64,000 nt of DNA from a virus (taxonomy: Duplodnaviria > Heunggongvirae > Uroviricota > Caudoviricetes). Below, piece after piece: positions 1-20,678 of the stretch. The notes beneath the pieces are model-generated. The model was not told the origin of the DNA. It did not search any database and saw nothing but the letters and a program-made list of their open reading frames with translations. The DNA is taken from positions 96,001 to 160,000 of IMG/VR virus record IMGVR_UViG_3300033067_001661; one strand, given 5' to 3'. Every line of letters begins with the position of its first letter. Position 1 is the stretch's first letter. The position numbers and the translations under genes are program-made.

Positions 1-268
1 ATTTATATTGCCAATAAATACACCGACTTGCAGCCAATCCCGGTTCAAGAGAATTCGCTTCTGAAACTCTTTTCCTTGCATAACATCCACAACTACGAGT
101 CCCGGCCAAAAGAGAAGAATGCTGTATCCATCGTTCTTGTCCACAATCACAAAAACATTTCCACTTAGTCACATAACTTTTGCCAGAAGGGAATCTTGCA
201 CTTTCATTAGAAACCAATAACTTTCCAAACCTACGACCAGAAAGGTCTTTACGTTTATTCTTTTTCAT
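1..268 (-). CDS. HNH-type homing endonuclease, N-terminal part (runs off the window start; absent from the ORF track)
   Basis: Manual translation from ATG at 268 gives MKKNKRKDLSGRRFGKLLV...WKCFCDCGQ...RSCGC. This DLxGxRFGxL/CxCDCG/SCGC pattern is typical of phage HNH/AP2-associated endonucleases. The frame is open to position 1. Confidence 0.7.
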   Translation of the reverse strand, partial: MKKNKRKDLSGRRFGKLLVSNESARFPSGKSYVTKWKCFCDCGQERWIQHSSLLAGTRSCGCYARKRVSEANSLEPGLAASRCIYWQYK

Positions 269-279
269 AATACTTTCCA

Positions 280-1029
280 TTACTTGAAAACGGTATTATG
301 TACATATCGAATATCTGTTTCAAATTCCTCCATTATTTTCTTTATCAAAAAGAAATCAATTTCGTCATCAACTTGTATAGAGGAAAGCTTATCGTTAAAA
401 TATAGAATTGGATCTTTATCAAACCTGCATTTTTCTCTTAAAAACATTGGAACTCTAAAACAATACAAACAACCGTCATCGTGATACGCCATTTCATTTA
501 TAGTTAATTCTTGTCTCATCTTTCTATTTTTAGCATCAAATAAGACATCTGTATAACCATTTTGTTGTCGGAAAAAAAATGGAGTATGAGAACTTACTGT
601 AAGTAAAGAATTCTTATCTGAATCATCTAAAATTTGAATACAATCATCTATTAGTGATATTTTTCTTATTGGAGATGTTGCCTGCAACATAACTAAATAA
701 TTGAAATCAGCATAATATGGATAATTGTCAAATAGATGACTAATAGCTTGCTCAGTCTTGCTTGTCGCAGAGCAAAGTTCTGCCGGTCTTTCAATCGCCC
801 TAAATACCTTCTCTGTATGTTCAGAAGCAAACTTGTTGAATGCTTCAAAAACCAATGGATCAATAGCTGAAACAACTATTTCATCTATGTACTTACTTTG
901 TGTTGCAGCAAGTAATGTCCACTCTAAAAGAGAGTGTTGACCAATCTTTTTGAACATCTTTCCGGGAAGACCAATAGAAGCCGTCTTGCCAGGAATGAAC
1001 GCTATTACTTTTGATTTGTCGGGGAGCAT
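280..1029 (-). CDS. Acylneuraminate (CMP-nonulosonate) cytidylyltransferase-like protein
   Basis: IAFIPGKTASIGLPGKMFKKIG (PARxGSKGxPxKN-like), RPAELCSATSKT, LQATSPIR, DDGCLY, SIQVDDEIDF: NeuA/CMAS family motifs. Confidence 0.85.
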   Translation of the reverse strand: MLPDKSKVIAFIPGKTASIGLPGKMFKKIGQHSLLEWTLLAATQSKYIDEIVVSAIDPLVFEAFNKFASEHTEKVFRAIERPAELCSATSKTEQAISHLFDNYPYYADFNYLVMLQATSPIRKISLIDDCIQILDDSDKNSLLTVSSHTPFFFRQQNGYTDVLFDAKNRKMRQELTINEMAYHDDGCLYCFRVPMFLREKCRFDKDPILYFNDKLSSIQVDDEIDFFLIKKIMEEFETDIRYVHNTVFK

Positions 1030-13014: not shown

Positions 13015-14193
13015 TTAGTCATCCAACCAACTTATTTTCCCTGTCTTTCCTGGACCACTCATCGACGTTTTTGCTGCCGAAGATTGAGCTTTCACAGCCT
13101 CTTGAACCTCTAATCTGTCAAAGCCTTCTGCTGCAATTTCTGGCGAAACAGCGGAACGAGTAGAAACGTTCTCAACAACCTTCTTAGCCTTATCAGACAA
13201 GTTTACATAGTTCTTTTCATGACTATCCGTAATGTTTTGCTGCTTAAGCAACTCAAGCGTTATACTAATCTTGCGACTAAGAATTTCTTTTGACTCAAGC
13301 AAATTGTGGTAAACGTCTTTAGCTGCTTGCTCAAGAGCCTCAACATCGCAAGCGTACATTTCAATGTCTTTCATATGATCATGAATAACACCATCTTGAC
13401 GAGCCGCTGGCTTTTCGTAAGTAACTTTTGCAAGAACACCCCTCAATAGCTCAACACCTCTTTTAGAAGCAGAACACTGTCCTGTTGCTTGAATCTTAAT
13501 CTGAACAACTCTATCAAGAAAGGATTGTATCTTGTTAAACTTATCAGCCATGCCCTCTAAATCCATTAGCTCTGTACTTGCGCTAACATGACATGACCTA
13601 AGCTCGTTCATAAGCTTATCAACAGGAATTGGCTTTCCACCCCTTGTGAGCGATTTGATAAAGTTCTGCTTTTCCGAATAGAAATGAGCAAACATTGGCG
13701 ACGGAGGAACAAGAGTCCAGCCATCTTCGTCTGCCTTACTCGCAACCGAAGGAGTCGTTACGGACTCCTCCTTTGTCTCCTCAGCTTCTTCTCCAGCGTC
13801 TGTATCTTCATTATGAGTGGTTTGTTTTTGCGCCACGGGTTTAGTCTCCTCGCTGACAGGCTTTCCAGGGAGAACTGACTGCTTGAGTATCTTCTCAAAC
13901 GAGTTCTTGCTGGGTTCTGCGATTGTGATTGGTTGCTGAACGACTGGTTCTTGTTTGGTCTTCGCTTCATTGCCTTGCTCCTTTGCAACGTAAGTAACCT
14001 CAATCGGCGGAGCATCTTTTGCTAAGACTTCGTTCAGCTTTTTTGACTTCTGCTCAAAACCCTCAGCGCCACTGGCCTTTATGACCTCAGCGTAAGAAGT
14101 TTCTTGGCTTTCGTCGTCTTCTTCTCTGATATTCGATCCATCTTTGGGAATACCAAAAATGTCATCTAAAAGCTGTTCATTTATCGACGGCAT
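13015..14193 (-). CDS. Hypothetical protein with acidic disordered N-terminus and helical C-terminal domain (possible recombination mediator)
   Basis: 392-aa ORF. The function guess rests only on the coiled-coil pattern and the position beside ssb/recA. Confidence 0.55.
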   Translation of the reverse strand: MPSINEQLLDDIFGIPKDGSNIREEDDESQETSYAEVIKASGAEGFEQKSKKLNEVLAKDAPPIEVTYVAKEQGNEAKTKQEPVVQQPITIAEPSKNSFEKILKQSVLPGKPVSEETKPVAQKQTTHNEDTDAGEEAEETKEESVTTPSVASKADEDGWTLVPPSPMFAHFYSEKQNFIKSLTRGGKPIPVDKLMNELRSCHVSASTELMDLEGMADKFNKIQSFLDRVVQIKIQATGQCSASKRGVELLRGVLAKVTYEKPAARQDGVIHDHMKDIEMYACDVEALEQAAKDVYHNLLESKEILSRKISITLELLKQQNITDSHEKNYVNLSDKAKKVVENVSTRSAVSPEIAAEGFDRLEVQEAVKAQSSAAKTSMSGPGKTGKISWLDD

Positions 14194-14212
14194 TTATTGT
14201 CTTCCTTTAACT

Positions 14213-14524
14213 TCAATCAAGAGCGTCAAAATCTTTCTTTTCTTCTTCAGTTAGACCACGTTTATTATTGGTTGTAGAAGATACAATTGCGGAGAATCCA
14301 TTGAGATTCAATTCCTCAAAAACCCTCTTCTGGGTATTCTCGAAATCCTCTCTCACAAGAGTTGTGATACCGTCGCTTTTGGCTCGCAACATATCAATGT
14401 TTTCCCATTCAACCTCAATCTGATGCTCCACAATAACATCCATTGTCTCAAACTTTGCAGTATTATACTTTCTGATAATAGCTTTGCGTACAATGGACTT
14501 TCTCATATTTTGATCTTGTGACAT
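14213..14524 (-). CDS. Hypothetical protein
   Basis: Start re-called at ATG 14524 behind GGAG. Confidence 0.6.
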   Translation of the reverse strand: MSQDQNMRKSIVRKAIIRKYNTAKFETMDVIVEHQIEVEWENIDMLRAKSDGITTLVREDFENTQKRVFEELNLNGFSAIVSSTTNNKRGLTEEEKKDFDALD

Positions 14525-14575
14525 ATTTTTCTCCAAATAGTAATTCGTCTACTCTATATCGCTATTGCGCTTATT

Positions 14576-16552
14576 TCACCCAAAAATATTACCAACAATG
14601 ACGCCCTTCTTCTTCGCCCTCTTTAGGTCTTCTCTAATAACCTCAAAAGTCTTAAGAACTTCCTCTCTATTTGCGCTTCGACCGCCGCCCTTAGCAGGCT
14701 TGAAGAATCCAGCGTTCAACAAAGACTCAAACGATTTCGCATCGACCATCTTCGTGTCAGTCTTTTCCGCAAACTCTTGAAGGCTAGCATAAGGTTGATG
14801 CTCTACGATATTGTTCGCAGCATTATGACTCAAGCCTTTGCACTTTATAGAAGGCATGATTTGCGACCTTGGAACGCCATTAGCAGGGTCCGCCTTCTTG
14901 ACAATGAAATACTCAAGCTTACACTGATTGATTTGCCTTGGCAAAATCTCCACGTTCATTTCTTTAGCCATCTTCTCAAGAGCGTCAACTTTATCATAGT
15001 TTGAACGGTTGATTTCAACATTAAGATAAGCTGTAAGGAACTCTTCTGGGAAGTTTGCCTTCAAATAAGCAGTAACATAAGAGTTATAAGCATAGCAGCA
15101 AGCGTGCGCCTTATTGAAACCGTAATCAGCAAACGGCATGATTACCTTGTCCCAATAGTCTTGAGCAATCTTCTCTTCTACGTTATTCTCTTTTGCGCCA
15201 GAAATAAACCTAGCCCTATACTTCGCCAAAAGCTCTGGTTTCTTTTTACCGATTGCCTTAATAACAACATAACCCTCAGGGATAGAAAAGCCTGCAATCG
15301 AGTTACAGATCTGCATGACTTGCTCTTGATATACAAGCAATCCATAGGTCTTCTTGAGATAAGGTTCAACGTACTTCTTTAGAGAAGGATGGAAATAGTT
15401 GATAGATTCCGAACCATGCTTGCGGGCGCAATAAGTCGGAATCGAGTCCATCGGACCAGGACGATACAAGGCGATACCTGCCATGATGTCGTCAAGGGAG
15501 TCAACTCCCATGTTAATCATGGTCTTCTGCATTCCAGTCTCTTCGCACTGGAATACGCCCGTTAGCTTACCGCTCTTGTACAAATCAAAAGTCTTCTTGT
15601 CTTCAAGAGGTAAGTCATAAATGTTGATCTTCAAGCCATAGTTTTGCTCAACAAGCTTACAGCATCGGCCAATAACCGAAAGTGTGCTAAGAGCAAGAAT
15701 ATCGAACTTGATTAGTCCAAGAAACTCTAAATCATTGTACTCAAACTGAGTTGCAAAAGCATATTTAACTTCGCCGTCTTCGGCTGTGTCTGTAATCTTG
15801 CTTTGCTTAAGCGGAGCTATGCGTCCAAGAGGCTCATTCGATATAACAATACCGGCAGCATGCACTCCGAATATAGATAAAAGTCCCTCAATACTCCTAG
15901 AGTGTTCAAGTATAGCAGGGTATTTCTCCATATAATATGCAAACTTAGAACACCATTTATTAGCATCTTGGACGGTCTTGATTGGATGTTCATTTCCTTG
16001 ATCATCTGTTACTTTCAAAAAAGCGCCATACTGAGGCGGAAGAGCATTCAATATCTCATCGCCAAGTTCGTTGGTCTTTGTTTTCCACTCGTCATAACCC
16101 TTGAAAAAGGTATTCTCTGGATCTATAGCCTTGACCGCTCGGCGAACAAACGATTTCATCTTAAGACCAGAATACGTTCCGATGTTACCGACATGCTCTC
16201 TTCCGTAGGTATCAATGATGTATTTATACATCTCGTCTCTACGTTCGTAGTCAAAGTCGGAGTCAATATCGGGAAAACCTTTACGAGCAAATGCGCGACG
16301 CTTTGGCAAAAACTCCGAACCTTCGTCAGGCTTCTTATCAGTCATTCCAAGCGCATATGCCGTCCAAGAATTGATATCATTACGATGACCAACCTTACCA
16401 TGAGAATGCTTCCAAATGGAATGAAACTTTTGTAGAACAGGCTTTTCGTCCAAGCCCTCTATCTGCTCCATTAGAGCTATCTCTTTTTCAATCAAAGGCA
16501 AAAGGGACTTGTCCTTAACTGCCTCCAAGATTTCTTGCTTCATATCCGCCAT
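14576..16552 (-). CDS. dnaE: DNA polymerase III alpha (DnaE), C-terminal half (catalytic palm, thumb, fingers, HhH; no OB fold)
   Basis: FPDIDSDF, GVHAAGIVI, GLIKFDILAL, GVFQCE, ALYRPGPM, VYQEQVMQ, YGFNKAH, AYLKANFP; ends ...GNIFG. Confidence 0.93.
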   Translation of the reverse strand: MADMKQEILEAVKDKSLLPLIEKEIALMEQIEGLDEKPVLQKFHSIWKHSHGKVGHRNDINSWTAYALGMTDKKPDEGSEFLPKRRAFARKGFPDIDSDFDYERRDEMYKYIIDTYGREHVGNIGTYSGLKMKSFVRRAVKAIDPENTFFKGYDEWKTKTNELGDEILNALPPQYGAFLKVTDDQGNEHPIKTVQDANKWCSKFAYYMEKYPAILEHSRSIEGLLSIFGVHAAGIVISNEPLGRIAPLKQSKITDTAEDGEVKYAFATQFEYNDLEFLGLIKFDILALSTLSVIGRCCKLVEQNYGLKINIYDLPLEDKKTFDLYKSGKLTGVFQCEETGMQKTMINMGVDSLDDIMAGIALYRPGPMDSIPTYCARKHGSESINYFHPSLKKYVEPYLKKTYGLLVYQEQVMQICNSIAGFSIPEGYVVIKAIGKKKPELLAKYRARFISGAKENNVEEKIAQDYWDKVIMPFADYGFNKAHACCYAYNSYVTAYLKANFPEEFLTAYLNVEINRSNYDKVDALEKMAKEMNVEILPRQINQCKLEYFIVKKADPANGVPRSQIMPSIKCKGLSHNAANNIVEHQPYASLQEFAEKTDTKMVDAKSFESLLNAGFFKPAKGGGRSANREEVLKTFEVIREDLKRAKKKGVIVGNIFG

Positions 16553-16575
16553 TTATCGTCTCCAATTGCAAAAAC

Positions 16576-17424
16576 TCACGGAAAACACATTGGCAATTTT
16601 TCTTTATCTTGAGCATAAGAGCTTTTCTTGACAACCAAAACTTCTACAGCCGTATCTTTTTTATCAGAAGTTTGCATATGCTTTACGACACTCTTCTCAT
16701 AAAAAGAGTAACCTTTACTTTCTGGATAAAGCTGCCTTATAAAGGGACTATCGTAATAGGATATTGCAACAGAACCCTTTATGCTGTCAATGTATTTAGC
16801 CATGTCTTTATGGTTGAAACCATCAGTCATGTTGACATGATAGAACATCTTCTCAACATTTTCATAAGGAGGGTCCAGGTAAAATAAAGCCTCTGGACAG
16901 TCCCACTTCTTAATACATTCCTTGTAATCAAGATTTTCTATGTAAACGTCTTTGAAGAACTTAGCGCATTTAGCAACAAAAGGCGGCAAGGTCGCCCAAG
17001 AAAGACAAATATTCTCTCCTGTTCTTGAAACGCACCATGTTCCGTCTTCCTTTCCAAACATAGACTGTCTATTGTAGATAAGATAGTTTCTTGCCCACTC
17101 AACAGGATCTTCTTTTACAAAGTCCCTCTTCGATTCGATATACTCAACCGCTTTCTCAAACTCTTCTCTAGAATATGGAGTTAATTCAAGCTTCTCAAGA
17201 AAAACATCTTTGTAATCTCTAAGAACTCTAAATAAGTTCCATACATGACTATCTAAATCATTGTAAACCAAACGATACTCGCCGTCTGGCTTTGGCAATA
17301 CAAAACCAACGGCAAAGCTACCGCCAAAAGGTTCGCAATACAGCGTATGCTTTGGAAATAGCTTTTTGATCCAATCTCTAAGCTTGACTTTGCCGCCAAC
17401 TCTTTTTATGATTGTATCTGCCAT
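16576..17424 (-). CDS. Dam/D12-class DNA adenine methyltransferase
   Basis: RVGGK, YCEPFGGS, VYNDLD, FYLDPPY. Confidence 0.9.
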   Translation of the reverse strand: MADTIIKRVGGKVKLRDWIKKLFPKHTLYCEPFGGSFAVGFVLPKPDGEYRLVYNDLDSHVWNLFRVLRDYKDVFLEKLELTPYSREEFEKAVEYIESKRDFVKEDPVEWARNYLIYNRQSMFGKEDGTWCVSRTGENICLSWATLPPFVAKCAKFFKDVYIENLDYKECIKKWDCPEALFYLDPPYENVEKMFYHVNMTDGFNHKDMAKYIDSIKGSVAISYYDSPFIRQLYPESKGYSFYEKSVVKHMQTSDKKDTAVEVLVVKKSSYAQDKEKLPMCFP

Positions 17425-17918
17425 TTGCCATTTCTCTTAATAAGAAGCACGCCCTGCTCTTTTAGTATATTTCTGAACTTACCAGTACCATATTTAGTAG
17501 GCTTTTCAATAATCGGAGCATTCTCGAAAACTTCCTTGCTAACCACAAACGCACCTTGTAGATCAATAGACACAATAACTAAATAGTTTGTTCTAGATTG
17601 CCGAGGATTATGAGTTATACTCTTTCTGTTAGGAAATGAAAAGCCTTCCGATTCAACCCTCTTGGGTAAGCTCTCAGCGCTCTTCCAGAATTCTTTCACT
17701 TCAACGTCAAAATAAACCGCATCCTTCTTACTATTAACTCCCCTAACATCCCAAAAAGTTAGATCACCGTCTTTCATTTCATTTTCGCGAAGAAAAATAT
17801 CCGTATAAAAGCCTGAAGCCTCTAGTATTTCCTTTAGAGTCTTCTTCCCAACAAGGTCATACTTGTCATTAAGTTCCTTATCAAAGGGTTTTTGATCATC
17901 AAGAAAATGCATAATCAA
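17406..17918 (-). CDS. Putative PD-(D/E)XK nuclease
   Basis: WDV...YFDVEVK fits a D-Xn-(D/E)xK catalytic signature. Overlaps the dnaE-N stop and the MTase start. Confidence 0.55.
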   Translation of the reverse strand: MIMHFLDDQKPFDKELNDKYDLVGKKTLKEILEASGFYTDIFLRENEMKDGDLTFWDVRGVNSKKDAVYFDVEVKEFWKSAESLPKRVESEGFSFPNRKSITHNPRQSRTNYLVIVSIDLQGAFVVSKEVFENAPIIEKPTKYGTGKFRNILKEQGVLLIKRNGKWQIQS

Positions 17919-19309
17919 TACCTATCTACGCCACCGGCGTCTTCTGTTACATCCCTATCTTCAAACAACTCTTCGCTGACAGGCTTCTCTTCGACCTTTG
18001 TAACAACCTCTCCGAAGAAGTCCTGGTCTTGAACAAAATACTTGTCGTCGAAGCCAAGGAATCGCTCCCAAATCAAATCATACTTCAATGGGTCTGGACC
18101 GTAAGCAATACCAAGCACTCTAAGAAGAACGCTTGCATAACCAGAACCTCGACCGCAACCAGTAAGGATAGACTTGTTAGTAGCCTCTTGAATGTAATCT
18201 CGAACAATAAGGAAGTAAGTTGCAAAATCGTATTTGTTATTCTCCCATGCAACTCTAACATCTTCAAGCTCTCTCTTGAGCCTTTCCTTATGAGGCTCGC
18301 TACGATCCCATCCAAGTTTCTTCATACCTTCCCATGCAATATGAGAAAGATAATCAAACGGAGAGGCAAAGCCTTCTGGAATCTTGTACCTAGGCAACCT
18401 CATGCCAGAAGTCATGTTCTCAAAAATATCCTTAGCATCTATCTTATCAGCAACCATGACTGTATTGAGAAGAAACTCTGGATGAGATCCAAACATTACA
18501 GACATCTCAAGAGCAGACTTGAGATAGAATTCATGGTACGGAAAATGCAATCTCTTTGGATCGTTAAGACAACGACTCGTACTCATGCACATGAGTATTT
18601 CTTGTGAAGAACCATGCTCTTTCTTACAATAGTGACAGTCATTTGTGGCAATGATTGGAACATTCATTTCATTGCCAAGCTTTATGATATCAGGAATAAT
18701 TGCCGCTTCCGCTTCAATTCCATGATACATAACCTCTAGATGGAAGTCTTCCTTGAAAATATCCTTGAAAAGAGCAACAGACTTCTTAGCCTGGTCATAA
18801 CGGTCATGAAGCAAGTTAGCGTTGATAACGCTGCTAAGACAAGCTGAATTACAAATCAAACCTTCGCTATGTTCAGCCAAAAGGTTGATATCAATTCTTG
18901 GGTCAATATAAACCCCTTCGGTCCATGACTTTTGAGATAAAGAGCAAAGGTTCTGCCAACCTTTCCAGTTCTTTGCAATAAGAACCAAGTGGCGATTACC
19001 TTTTCTTCCGTCAGGTTGACCCTTCACAATCTTATTGCCGTCTTTCTTTTCACCTCTCAAGTGACGGTCTTTAGACAAGTAGAATTCGCAACCAATAATA
19101 GGCTTTATACCCTCTTTATTGCATTCTTGAGTAAACTTGACCGCTCCGCCCATATTGCCGTGGTCAGTCAACGCTAAGGCCTTAAACCCCATTTCCTTAG
19201 CAGCCTTAGGAAATTGAGATATCTTATTCAAGCCGTCAAAAGACGAATACTCGGAATGATTGTGCAAATGCACAAAATCGCTATTGCTTATGATTTTTGC
19301 CATAGTCAT
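17915..19309 (-). CDS. dnaE: DNA polymerase III alpha (DnaE), N-terminal half (PHP domain plus palm segment to WERFL)
   Basis: FVHLHNHSEYSSFDG, ALTDHG, PIIGCE, HLVLIAKN, SACL, TNDCHY, YLKS, GRGSG, DPLKYDLIWERFL, then an acidic tail and a stop. Confidence 0.93.
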   Translation of the reverse strand: MTMAKIISNSDFVHLHNHSEYSSFDGLNKISQFPKAAKEMGFKALALTDHGNMGGAVKFTQECNKEGIKPIIGCEFYLSKDRHLRGEKKDGNKIVKGQPDGRKGNRHLVLIAKNWKGWQNLCSLSQKSWTEGVYIDPRIDINLLAEHSEGLICNSACLSSVINANLLHDRYDQAKKSVALFKDIFKEDFHLEVMYHGIEAEAAIIPDIIKLGNEMNVPIIATNDCHYCKKEHGSSQEILMCMSTSRCLNDPKRLHFPYHEFYLKSALEMSVMFGSHPEFLLNTVMVADKIDAKDIFENMTSGMRLPRYKIPEGFASPFDYLSHIAWEGMKKLGWDRSEPHKERLKRELEDVRVAWENNKYDFATYFLIVRDYIQEATNKSILTGCGRGSGYASVLLRVLGIAYGPDPLKYDLIWERFLGFDDKYFVQDQDFFGEVVTKVEEKPVSEELFEDRDVTEDAGGVDRY

Positions 19310-19346
19310 GTATCGACGCTACAGGACTCGGATTTAGAGTAAAACA

Positions 19347-19625
19347 CTAACCATGTTTCTTGGGGTCAAATCGCTCTCGAATGCCCTTTTCTTTATCATG
19401 AATCCACTTAGGTCGTGTTTTCCTAATATGATCACGAACATCCGAGCATCTGTCCCAAGCTGGTTTGCCGTCTCTAATGGCTGGCGCGCAAATAGCCCTA
19501 CGGATTGGCTTGCCGCTTTCAGGATCAACAGTAAGAGCGTCGTCTTTCATGCTTTGAAAGATCTCAATAGTCTCACCTGTTGGCTCGCCCTCTTTACTCA
19601 GTATCTGGTATATGTAGGTTGGAAT
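19347..19625 (-). CDS. FmdB-family putative regulatory protein (Cys-less variant), probable AUU start
   Basis: (I/M)PTYIYQ...EIFQSMKDDALTVDPESGKPIRRAICAPAI. AAGGAG at 19638-19633 lies 7 nt before ATT at 19625. An alternative ATG at 19652 has no RBS. Confidence 0.7.
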   Translation of the reverse strand: MPTYIYQILSKEGEPTGETIEIFQSMKDDALTVDPESGKPIRRAICAPAIRDGKPAWDRCSDVRDHIRKTRPKWIHDKEKGIRERFDPKKHG

Positions 19626-19674
19626 TTTTGATCTCCTTGAAGGAATTTTCATGCCGCATAACTAATATAAATGT

Positions 19675-20445
19675 ATGAAAAAGATAATCATATCAAAGCG
19701 TGAATTAGAAAAAACGATAAATAGTAGTAACTCTAGAAAAGAAATTTTAGACAAACTTCAAATATCTCAATCTACATTTTACAGCATATGCTCTTCATAT
19801 AAAATATCGGCAATAAAACCTAAATTTAACGAAAACTATTTCGAGAATATAGATTCAGAAAGAAAAGCTTATTGGCTTGGTTTTATTTTTGCAGATGGAT
19901 GTGTTTCGGAAATAAAGGGTTGTTCAAAATTCTTGTCCATTTGCCTATCAAGAAAAGACAGAGAACATCTTGAACTATTTAGTAAAGATATAAAATCTTC
20001 TATCAAAATACATGATTATCATAATAAGCACGATTTTTCTTATATTCGTTTGTATTCAGATAAGATAAGTAATGATTTAATCAAACTTGGATGCACTCCG
20101 AGAAAATCACTAACACTCCAATACCCAATCCTAAATAAGAATATGGATAGACACTTTATAAGAGGATATTTCGACGGAGATGGATGCGTTTCACATCATA
20201 ATAATGGAGCAAGGGGAGGGCCAAGATTATCTATTATAGGAAGTGAAATATTTTTAGATGAAATGCAAAACAAATTACATGAACATTTAGGAATAAAAAA
20301 GAGACCAAAACTATTTAGATCAGGAAGTGCCTACAAATATGATAGTACCGCATACAGTTCTGTAAAAACAATAATGGATTGGCTATACAAAGATTCCAAT
20401 GTCTTCCTGAGCAGAAAAAGAAATTCTTATTTATCTGCTATTTAA
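19675..20445 (+). mobile_element. Free-standing two-motif LAGLIDADG homing endonuclease
   Basis: AYWLGFIFADGCV and RHFIRGYFDGDGCV, plus FNENYFENIDS, GCTPRKSL and FLSRK. AT-rich, opposite strand. Confidence 0.9.
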
Positions 20446-20678
20446 TTTACGTTGGCATTGTCTTTACTATGTCCTGCGCATTGAACAACAATGGATGTTA
20501 CAAAGTTCTTTTTGTATACCTTCCATTCAACCTGTCTTCCAAAGACAGTTATCTTTACAGGCTCAATGGGATTAGAACAATCCACTGTTTCGCAATCATT
20601 GCATAAAGGGGAAACAACTCCAAGAGGCCCAACAGGAAGCCTTTCAAGAGGAACAAGTTTGCACTTATACTGGCTCAC
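20442..20678 (-). CDS. Small Cys-rich hypothetical protein
   Basis: CxC, CNDCETVDC and QC; overlaps its neighbours. Confidence 0.55.
   Translation of the reverse strand: MSQYKCKLVPLERLPVGPLGVVSPLCNDCETVDCSNPIEPVKITVFGRQVEWKVYKKNFVTSIVVQCAGHSKDNANVN

Follow-up and report, generated by a model that had tools for sequence, protein, structure and literature searches.

A phage DNA polymerase III alpha gene divided within the palm, with a putative composite active site and an overlapping copy of a palm segment at the break

Can the catalytic centre of a replicative DNA polymerase be divided between two separately encoded polypeptides that are not ligated to each other? This question is raised by a dnaE locus at positions 19309..14576 (minus strand) of the window, that is, the whole 64,000-nucleotide (nt) stretch of DNA analysed here, which spans positions 96,001 to 160,000 of the IMG/VR virus record IMGVR_UViG_3300033067_001661. 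The record is a 333.6-kb phage genome (Caudoviricetes) with an estimated completeness of 66%. According to the listing of open reading frames (ORFs), the locus is filled by four close-packed genes, namely the N-terminal half of dnaE (N-half), ORF170/168, a D12 methylase gene and the C-terminal half of dnaE (C-half). The ORFs of the two halves are 1.36 kb apart, and each has a separate start. Replicative polymerases are nearly always single catalytic chains, and the cyanobacterial split DnaE is rejoined by an intein. The cut in the phage gene lies between the loop that binds the deoxynucleoside triphosphate (dNTP) and the aspartates that bind metal, without an intein, and catalysis should therefore require an interface between two protein chains. 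We consider it probable that the two genes encode an obligate heterodimeric polymerase with a composite active site.

17915..19309, minus strand: dnaE N-half gene, 464 amino acids (aa), encoding the PHP domain, the first palm segment and an acidic tail (ORF, Pfam and AlphaFold 2 (AF2) model)
14576..16552, minus strand: dnaE C-half gene, 658 aa, encoding palm copy 2 (the head), the catalytic palm, thumb, fingers and HhH (ORF, Pfam and AF2 model)

The coordinates and contents of the two genes in an initial annotation of this DNA agree with the ORFs and with Pfam. The N-half begins with the PHP domain expected of a DnaE-type polymerase (PF02811, 1.6e-46) and matches positions 2-97 of the PF07733 profile at aa 320-421. 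The C-half matches PF07733 positions 69-260 at aa 61-287, followed by the fingers (290-457) and HhH (534-620); with PF17657 (2.8e-51) and PF14579 (6.5e-09), the thumb, fingers and HhH are all present. It also has its own ribosome-binding site, GGAG, 8 nt before the ATG. The record contains a single DnaE locus, and its 333.6 kb (approximately 66% of the genome) gave no match to PolA, PolB or a beta clamp. The split DnaE is thus the sole recognisable DNA polymerase in the phage record. The elements of the two halves on which the following analysis depends are as follows.

18722..19270, minus strand: core of the PHP domain, aa 14-196 of the N-half (Pfam, family alignment)
18017..18298, minus strand: palm unit copy 1, aa 338-431 of the N-half, composed of helix RLKRELEDV, helix YFLIVRDYI, a strand with the GRGS loop, a helix, the WERFL helix and a remnant strand (hhalign)
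18143..18154, minus strand: G386-R-G-S389, the nucleotidyltransferase GS motif, which binds the nucleoside triphosphate (family alignment)
18017..18028, minus strand: D428-Q-D430-F431, remnant of the catalytic DxDF strand that closes copy 1 (family alignment)
17918..18016, minus strand: acidic linker, aa 432-464, ending in GGVDRY-COOH (predicted local distance difference test score (pLDDT) <50)
16274..16552, minus strand: C-head, aa 1-93 of the C-half, a remote and conserved second palm copy in which the GS motif is replaced by G55-x-x-N58-x-x-N61-S62 (profile-profile alignment)
16253..16273, minus strand: P94-D-I-D-S-D-F100, the strand with two catalytic aspartates (alignment to Taq PDIDTDF)
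15701..15709, minus strand: K282-F-D284, the third catalytic carboxylate (alignment to Taq LLKMDFLGL)

The GS loop of the Pol-beta-type superfamily binds the phosphates of the incoming nucleotide. In the phage, GRGS is found in the N-half only and is invariant in 58 aligned N-halves, down to 55% identity. PDIDSDF and KFD are found in the C-half only, and P94, D95, D97, D99, K282 and D284 are invariant in 52 aligned C-halves. This is the motif partition that the initial annotation had described, and its claim that the GS loop and the three catalytic carboxylates are on different polypeptides is likewise borne out. The palm is therefore equipped with a GS loop and with D97, D99 and D284, yet these are shared out over two chains. 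The polymerase is not encoded as a single polypeptide here, and most relatives also have two ORFs. With GRGS and the carboxylates on separate chains, the active site would be complete only upon non-covalent association of the chains.

AF2 models built with family alignments gave a pLDDT of 84 for the N-half and 86 for the C-half. Residues 7..425 of the N-half model superpose on 5..461 of Taq alpha, 1..395-399 of the Escherichia coli protein and 7..419 of the Mycobacterium tuberculosis protein (Z 36-39), and residues 89..655 and 91..644 of the C-half model superpose on Taq 458..983 and E. coli 397..910, respectively (Z 22-27). The two models thus tile canonical Pol III alpha without overlap up to HhH, leaving the head without a counterpart, and the junction in the tiled structures is 2-6 residues ahead of the first catalytic Asp. 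As judged from these models, the cut separates the strand-GS-helix element of the Pol-beta-like palm from its DxD strand.

The initial annotation placed the end of the N-half just after WERFL; the real end is 46 aa further on. The overlap between the halves is also longer than had been seen, because the N-half keeps a remnant of the catalytic strand as well ([E/D]-x-D430-F431). The stretch L418-G-F-D421...F425...[E/D]428-x-D430-F431 represents what is left of 'FPD...DxDF'. D430 is present in 119/119 sequences, F431 in 113/119 and an acidic residue at position 428 in 92/119 (77%), and the N-half ends 1-5 aa past this strand in 25/119. The motif GG[VT]DRY ends 81 of the 119 N-halves (two-thirds) and is absent from short and fused forms; the GGVDRY-COOH tail looks like a terminal docking peptide. 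In the PHP domain, nine positions are invariant in the family (H16, H18, D25, H50, E75, H107, C157, D224 and H226), which we take to be the nine usual metal-ligand positions; this domain may act as an exonuclease. An ORF of 188 aa for a DnaQ-like RNase_T exonuclease is located outside the window and far from the dnaE locus (G000:C1:295446-295955, L064), so that the PHP domain need not be the sole proofreader.

An overlap of the two halves was seen on all the full-length models used: on PF07733 positions 69-97, on positions 372-394 of PRK05673 and 367-391 of TIGR00594 (both NCBIfam), and on residues 384-414 of M. tuberculosis DnaE1. On contiguous phage DnaEs, the N-half up to residue 431-463 and the C-half from residue 47-55 map to the same DNA (tblastn). 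Since such overlaps might arise from over-extension of alignments, the head was tested by itself. A profile of the C-head (52 sequences, aa 1-93, with the catalytic motif excluded) was compared by hhalign with the 97-aa palm segment of 17 contiguous phage DnaEs, and the two matched with a probability of 89.7% and an E of 1.8e-6. Positions 15-77 of the head aligned with positions 17-81 of the canonical segment over 62 columns, collinearly, nearly without gaps and in the expected register; the aligned features include the E-L helix, the I-W helix, the strand Gly and S-x-x-A-Y-x-L-G-x-T-x-x-x-P. The score of 37.2 is approximately 9.7 standard deviations above those of 150 column shuffles (11.6 +/- 2.6, maximum 21.5), and the reversed alignment scored 11.8. 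For comparison, copy 1 of the N-half matched the canonical segment profile with an E of 1.6e-32. Exactly 33 residues separate the S-x-x-A-Y helix from PDID, without a gap relative to Taq, and the predicted order of helices and strands in the head is the canonical one (pLDDT 82-92 for aa 1-80 in AF2). On this profile-profile evidence, the C-head is homologous to the palm segment at the end of the N-half. The overlapping unit is approximately 95 aa long (N 338-431, C ~15-100), and the gene boundary is at the junction of its two copies.

The initial annotation had described the start of the C-half as a decayed second copy of the region ending the N-half. The homology to palm profiles is upheld, through profile-profile comparison; the decay is not, since the head is strongly conserved throughout the family. 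N58, N61, S62, A65, P75 and R85/86/90 are invariant or nearly so, and the position of GRGSxxGS is taken by G55-H-R-N58 and the residues that follow it in the pattern given above. The dN/dS values of both copies are ~0.07-0.11 where dS is not saturated, and these values are rough, because dS is saturated for most pairs. Copy 1 has the lowest dN in the N-half gene (0.08-0.12) and is the slowest-evolving part of the locus. These rates indicate that both palm copies are under purifying selection and that neither is decaying. The copies appear to have degenerated complementarily: copy 1 kept GRGS and lost the strict DxD, and copy 2 kept DxD and lost GRGS.

A megablast search of deposited phages found no near-identical or annotated relative. 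With tblastn, identity to these phages reached 32% for the C-half and 42% for the N-half; the best matches examined (L062 and L063) are contiguous DnaEs. Relatives of the N-half were taken from the best 120 matches, of which 118 proteins (425-505 aa, 54-94% identity) were aligned; their contigs, which reach 500 kb, come from marine (Tara), freshwater and wastewater samples. The split is common to a diverse clade of phages of 160-550 kb, and this survey confirmed that the breakpoint is shared. The head profile retrieved 74 representatives at the 50% identity level among 1.84 billion proteins; the head is N-terminal in at least 68 of these and clearly internal in three (fused forms of 1098-1426 aa).

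In a set of 52 related viral loci, four arrangements were seen within the in-group. In the first, the genes are split with one to four intervening genes, which include the Dam methylase in the subclade of the window and other genes, or genes of no identified family, elsewhere. In the second (L016, L019, L030 and L033, two of which belong to the deepest in-group branches), no gene separates the halves, which lie 3-14 nt apart or overlap. In the third, one ORF contains both copies (L025 and L028/L029). In the fourth (L031, 998 aa, and L032, 932 aa), one ORF has the canonical junction and no head: the N-type GRGS segment is joined directly to the C-type FARPGFPDIDTDF strand, and the match of L032 to PF07733 is uninterrupted over positions 1-260. 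The elements that would pair in the heterodimer are thus combined in a working protein of one chain in these relatives, and the retention of exactly the N-type GRGS and the C-type DxD strand in L031 and L032 is the best available evidence that these two work together in the heterodimer.

L025:6971-10282, L028:6986-10270, and also P0200 and P0209: natural single-chain DnaEs of ~1100 aa with both palm copies in tandem

Quick trees of the conserved cores, rooted with contiguous DnaEs of the actinophage type, placed split forms at the base (L035, L019 and L033) and both contiguous kinds within one clade of split forms (Shimodaira-Hasegawa-like approximate likelihood ratio test support, 96-97). The heads of all split forms are homologous, which makes a single early overlap and fission the simplest history. 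This event would have been followed by many insertions of cargo genes into the gap, by re-fusion at least once and by one further deletion that restored a canonical gene.

These observations suggest a mechanism for the proposed heterodimer. Subunit 1, the N-half, would contribute PHP and the first palm segment, whose strand-GRGS-helix would hold the triphosphate of the incoming dNTP, and subunit 2, the C-half, would contribute the two-Asp strand, the third carboxylate, the thumb, the fingers and the DNA-binding HhH module. The arrangement may have originated by partial duplication, either as a tandem copy of the ~95-aa unit from 'helix A' to the DxDF strand or as a whole-gene duplicate trimmed by one deletion. 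Such a duplication would have left two overlapping fragments, in which the copies subsequently lost different motifs. The strand in the N-tail and the C-head would together form a circularly rearranged copy of the unit, which may fold in trans as a pseudo-unit that clamps the subunits together, and the gap between the genes would later have become a landing place for cargo, such as the nuclease-like ORF and the Dam-type methylase. More tentatively, as a concrete form of the domain swapping raised in the initial annotation, we suggest a reciprocal strand swap of two paralogous nucleotidyltransferase units, in which the strand-GRGS-helix of the N-half and the DxD strand of the C-half form the catalytic unit and the C-head and the [E/D]xDF strand of the N-half form the pseudo-unit, with re-fused and 'healed' descendants in the clade; this is possible, and we would not call it likely. 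If it is true, the active site is an inter-subunit beta-sheet made by duplication and complementary degeneration, and the clade records a gene fission together with its reversal.

Searches for Hint/intein domains (Hint_2 and Intein_splicing) at E<=0.01 found none in either half, and the same search detected inteins at other sites in relatives. By eye, the N-tail has no Cys or Ser junction and the head no HN-C/S/T. The locus thus encodes, as initially annotated, an intein-free C-family polymerase in two genes. No Rfam family, intron or other, was found in 14000-20600 at E<=1, a search that undescribed intron types would escape. The locus is covered by contigs from three wastewater metatranscriptome libraries and one DNA run, which span the N-half/ORF170 and methylase/C-half junctions; none of these contigs contains an N-to-C joint. 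The sole joint in them links 17426 to 17889 through other sequence, replacing the ORF170 slot, and is a strain polymorphism. An intein-split (trans-spliced) DnaE was rejected because no intein parts are present at the N/C break, and an intron-interrupted dnaE because there was neither an Rfam intron nor an N-to-C joint in the contigs. The relatives do contain true inteins (Hint plus LAGLIDADG) within PHP, at ~aa 72 in L004 and ~aa 224 in L007, and 'fractured gene' breaks (intein N-piece, free-standing ORF and C-piece) in the C-half of L007 at ~aa 265 and past the fingers in L032.

L004:4037-6574, L007:2035-4644, L007:6024-9293 and L032:6992-11635: relatives with inteins or fractured breaks

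It is against this background that the joining of the two frames into one canonical protein, by a group I or II intron, protein trans-splicing or ribosomal bypass, must be judged. Inteins and split-intein breaks at other sites in this polymerase family, together with the endonuclease-interrupted dnaE genes of cultured phages described below, speak for such joining. However, besides the negative searches just described, the C-half has its own ribosome-binding site and ATG, the 3-14 nt between the halves in relatives leave no room for an intron, and the N-tail and the head, whose amino-acid sequences are conserved, would have to be removed for joining to yield a canonical protein. We therefore regard joining as very improbable. 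A resemblance of the head to the palm that arose by convergence or chance, the head being an unrelated helical docking domain and the split having occurred without duplication, is improbable to a lesser degree. In its favour, the head sequence alone matched nothing in Pfam or PDB by phmmer, an 18-sequence head hidden Markov model found no DnaE match in PDB, and pairwise tblastn of the head against two contiguous DnaEs gave nothing significant; in addition, the direct comparison of the head with the N-half copy, although collinear over 80-87 columns, was not significant (hhalign E 0.14-0.15). This last result is what would be expected if both copies had diverged independently from a canonical ancestor. 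The profile-profile match, far above the 150 shuffles and the reversed control, its collinear and near-gapless 62 columns, the 33-residue spacing shared with Taq and the matching order of secondary structures are difficult to reconcile with chance.

The main rival is a self-sufficient C-half, in which the head serves as its own modified nucleotide-binding segment, with G..N..NS in place of GRGS, and the N-half is an accessory protein, for example a PHP proofreading exonuclease with an idle palm stub. The canonical order of helices and strands in the head, its high pLDDT and its homology to the canonical segment are all compatible with this possibility, as are the strong conservation of the head, including the positions equivalent to the GS loop, and its retention in fused forms. 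On the other hand, GRGSGY is invariant in the N-half, whose palm unit evolves more slowly than the rest of the locus, and the contiguous L031 and L032 have dropped the head and not the N-type segment. In none of the structural alignments does the head fall at the canonical site: when the C-half model was aligned by VIA-align, aa 1-84 of the head remained without a match among solved DnaE and PolC structures, which is a sign neither of a new fold nor of wrong placement. Furthermore, a Pol-beta-type nucleotidyltransferase that has lost its GS motif should be severely impaired. We therefore consider a self-sufficient C-half unlikely, less so than either joining or chance resemblance. Several points weigh against the heterodimer and the history proposed for it. 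Given the non-significant direct comparison, the 'duplication' rests on the match of both copies to a third, canonical profile, and the placing of the head by AF2 within an isolated chain is weak evidence. The head has its own invariant motif (G..N..NS) and has survived in the re-fused L025, L028, P0200 and P0209, so that it may do more than hold the chains together. The contigs neither prove transcription nor exclude a rare spliced RNA, and a second polymerase could lie in the missing part of the incomplete record. Finally, constraining all split forms together cost 36 log-likelihood units, a borderline result in the approximately unbiased test on the quick tree (p-AU 0.048), and the group used in that test was named after the tree had been seen.

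Two genes are located between the halves in the window.

17406..17912, minus strand: ORF170/168, a small putative PD-(D/E)xK nuclease; likely start, ATG 17912
16576..17424, minus strand: D12-class (Dam-like) N6-adenine DNA methyltransferase, 282 aa (PF02086 1.6e-24, PHROG 56 4.6e-59)

The likely ATG of ORF170 is two bases past the stop of the N-half. ORF170 matched no family in Pfam, PHROG or NCBIfam, and its assignment as a PD-(D/E)xK nuclease is a lead only, based on the nearest named Atlas clusters, which are PDDEXK at 0.91-0.93. Its slot is occupied by other ORFs in relatives and co-occurring strains: the 98%-identical L003 has a different ORF of 174 aa, other relatives have ORFs of 173-205 aa that were not matched to ORF170 by tblastn, and two further runs show loose ends at 17426 and 17889. 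The ORF170 slot (17426-17889) is a swap site. A Dam methylase gene separates the halves in the subclade of the window alone (L010-L015 and L036) and is absent from this position in other relatives. Because the halves are adjacent in several relatives and the intervening genes are lineage-specific, the nuclease/methylase pair was acquired later, in a gap that already existed; ORF170 and the methylase are cargo and not part of the polymerase. Outside the split gene, a free-standing LAGLIDADG endonuclease gene (19675-20445, plus strand; PF14528, PHROG 4645) is located ~370 bases upstream of the N-half, and a small gene of 101 aa lies between the two. A scan for promoters and terminators gave results at chance level.

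If the proposed order of events is correct, this family would preserve a legible and uncommon record of the way in which an essential gene can be divided with no inactive stage in between, through an overlap created by duplication, complementary loss of motifs and then fission, and the relatives that are re-fused or lack the extra copy would extend this record. A natural two-piece C-family polymerase could also serve studies of palm assembly and the engineering of split polymerases. For annotation, it should be kept in mind that genes of huge phages for a ~460-aa 'PHP plus palm stub' and a ~660-aa 'DnaE fragment' are not pseudogenes.

Compared with contiguous Pol III alpha of the DnaE1 type (PDB 2hpi, 5lew and 2hnh), the phage protein pair shares all domains from PHP to HhH and the catalytic motifs. 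The canonical enzyme is one chain without a second palm unit, whereas the phage pair lacks the OB and tau-binding C-terminal domains, its C-half ending after HhH. The family B polymerase of Methanothermobacter is an intein-free replicative polymerase with its catalytic core on two polypeptides; its family and fold are unrelated to those of the phage DnaE, and we know of no duplicated overlap in it. In T4-like phages, Aeh1 NrdA is said to be split by mobE, an inserted homing-endonuclease gene thought to have made the split, and gp43 is reportedly split in some Aeromonas phages. By analogy, these genes in pieces may share with the present locus an essential nucleic-acid enzyme made as non-covalent fragments with mobile genes between them. 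In the phage studied here, however, the gap predates the present cargo, and the fragments overlap by a duplicated unit. The initial annotation had cited Aeh1 NrdA as a precedent; this analogy, a split made by an inserted endonuclease gene, does not fit, given the directly adjacent halves of several relatives. In two cultured phages, Bacillus phage vB_BauM_KLEB27-3 (gp166/165/164; L065) and Alicyclobacillus phage MMB025 (L066), dnaE is present as two coding sequences around an HNH or other endonuclease gene, with other break sites.

The cyanobacterial split DnaE was reportedly described by Wu, Hu and Liu in 1998. Metagenomic 'fractured genes', including dnaE, whose halves flank a free-standing endonuclease gene, were described by Dassa et al. 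in 2009 (PMC2677866), who also mentioned Aeh1 nrdA. Both kinds resemble the phage locus in having dnaE in two genes. They carry parts of split inteins at the ends, are ligated into one chain and have other break sites, whereas the phage halves have no intein, overlap in homology and give no hint of ligation. Surveys of viral replicases and of marine jumbo phages (PMC3201878, PMC9123017) mention C-family polymerases or PF07733 and not this split, and the literature, for which full-text coverage was incomplete, yielded no account of a full-length DnaE that has no intein, is divided at this position and carries an overlapping, duplicated unit of the palm.

A composite active site in a C-family polymerase has its nearest precedent in the split 'minimal' Pol III alpha predicted in group 2.2 jumbo phages by Iyer, Anantharaman, Krishnan, Burroughs and Aravind in 2021 (Viruses 13:63, PMC7824862). 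In the parts of that paper available to us, two stand-alone proteins, one N-terminal and NTP-binding and the other C-terminal and Mg2+- and template-binding, are predicted to reconstitute one enzyme. The two systems would thus share an intein-free C-family catalytic module in two proteins and, conceptually, the same cut. As described in those parts, the minimal system has no PHP or other Pol III domains, its genes are far apart, it is accompanied by a family B polymerase, and no overlapping duplicated unit is reported for it. The locus studied here differs in these respects: PHP is present, the genes are neighbours and no PolB was found in the record. The phage pair, set apart by description rather than by sequence, has the full series PHP-palm-thumb-fingers-HhH as the only polymerase found, (near-)adjacent genes and an overlap of ~90 aa. 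Split C-family polymerases in general were already known; what appears to be new is a full-length, intein-free DnaE that is split within the palm with an overlapping unit.

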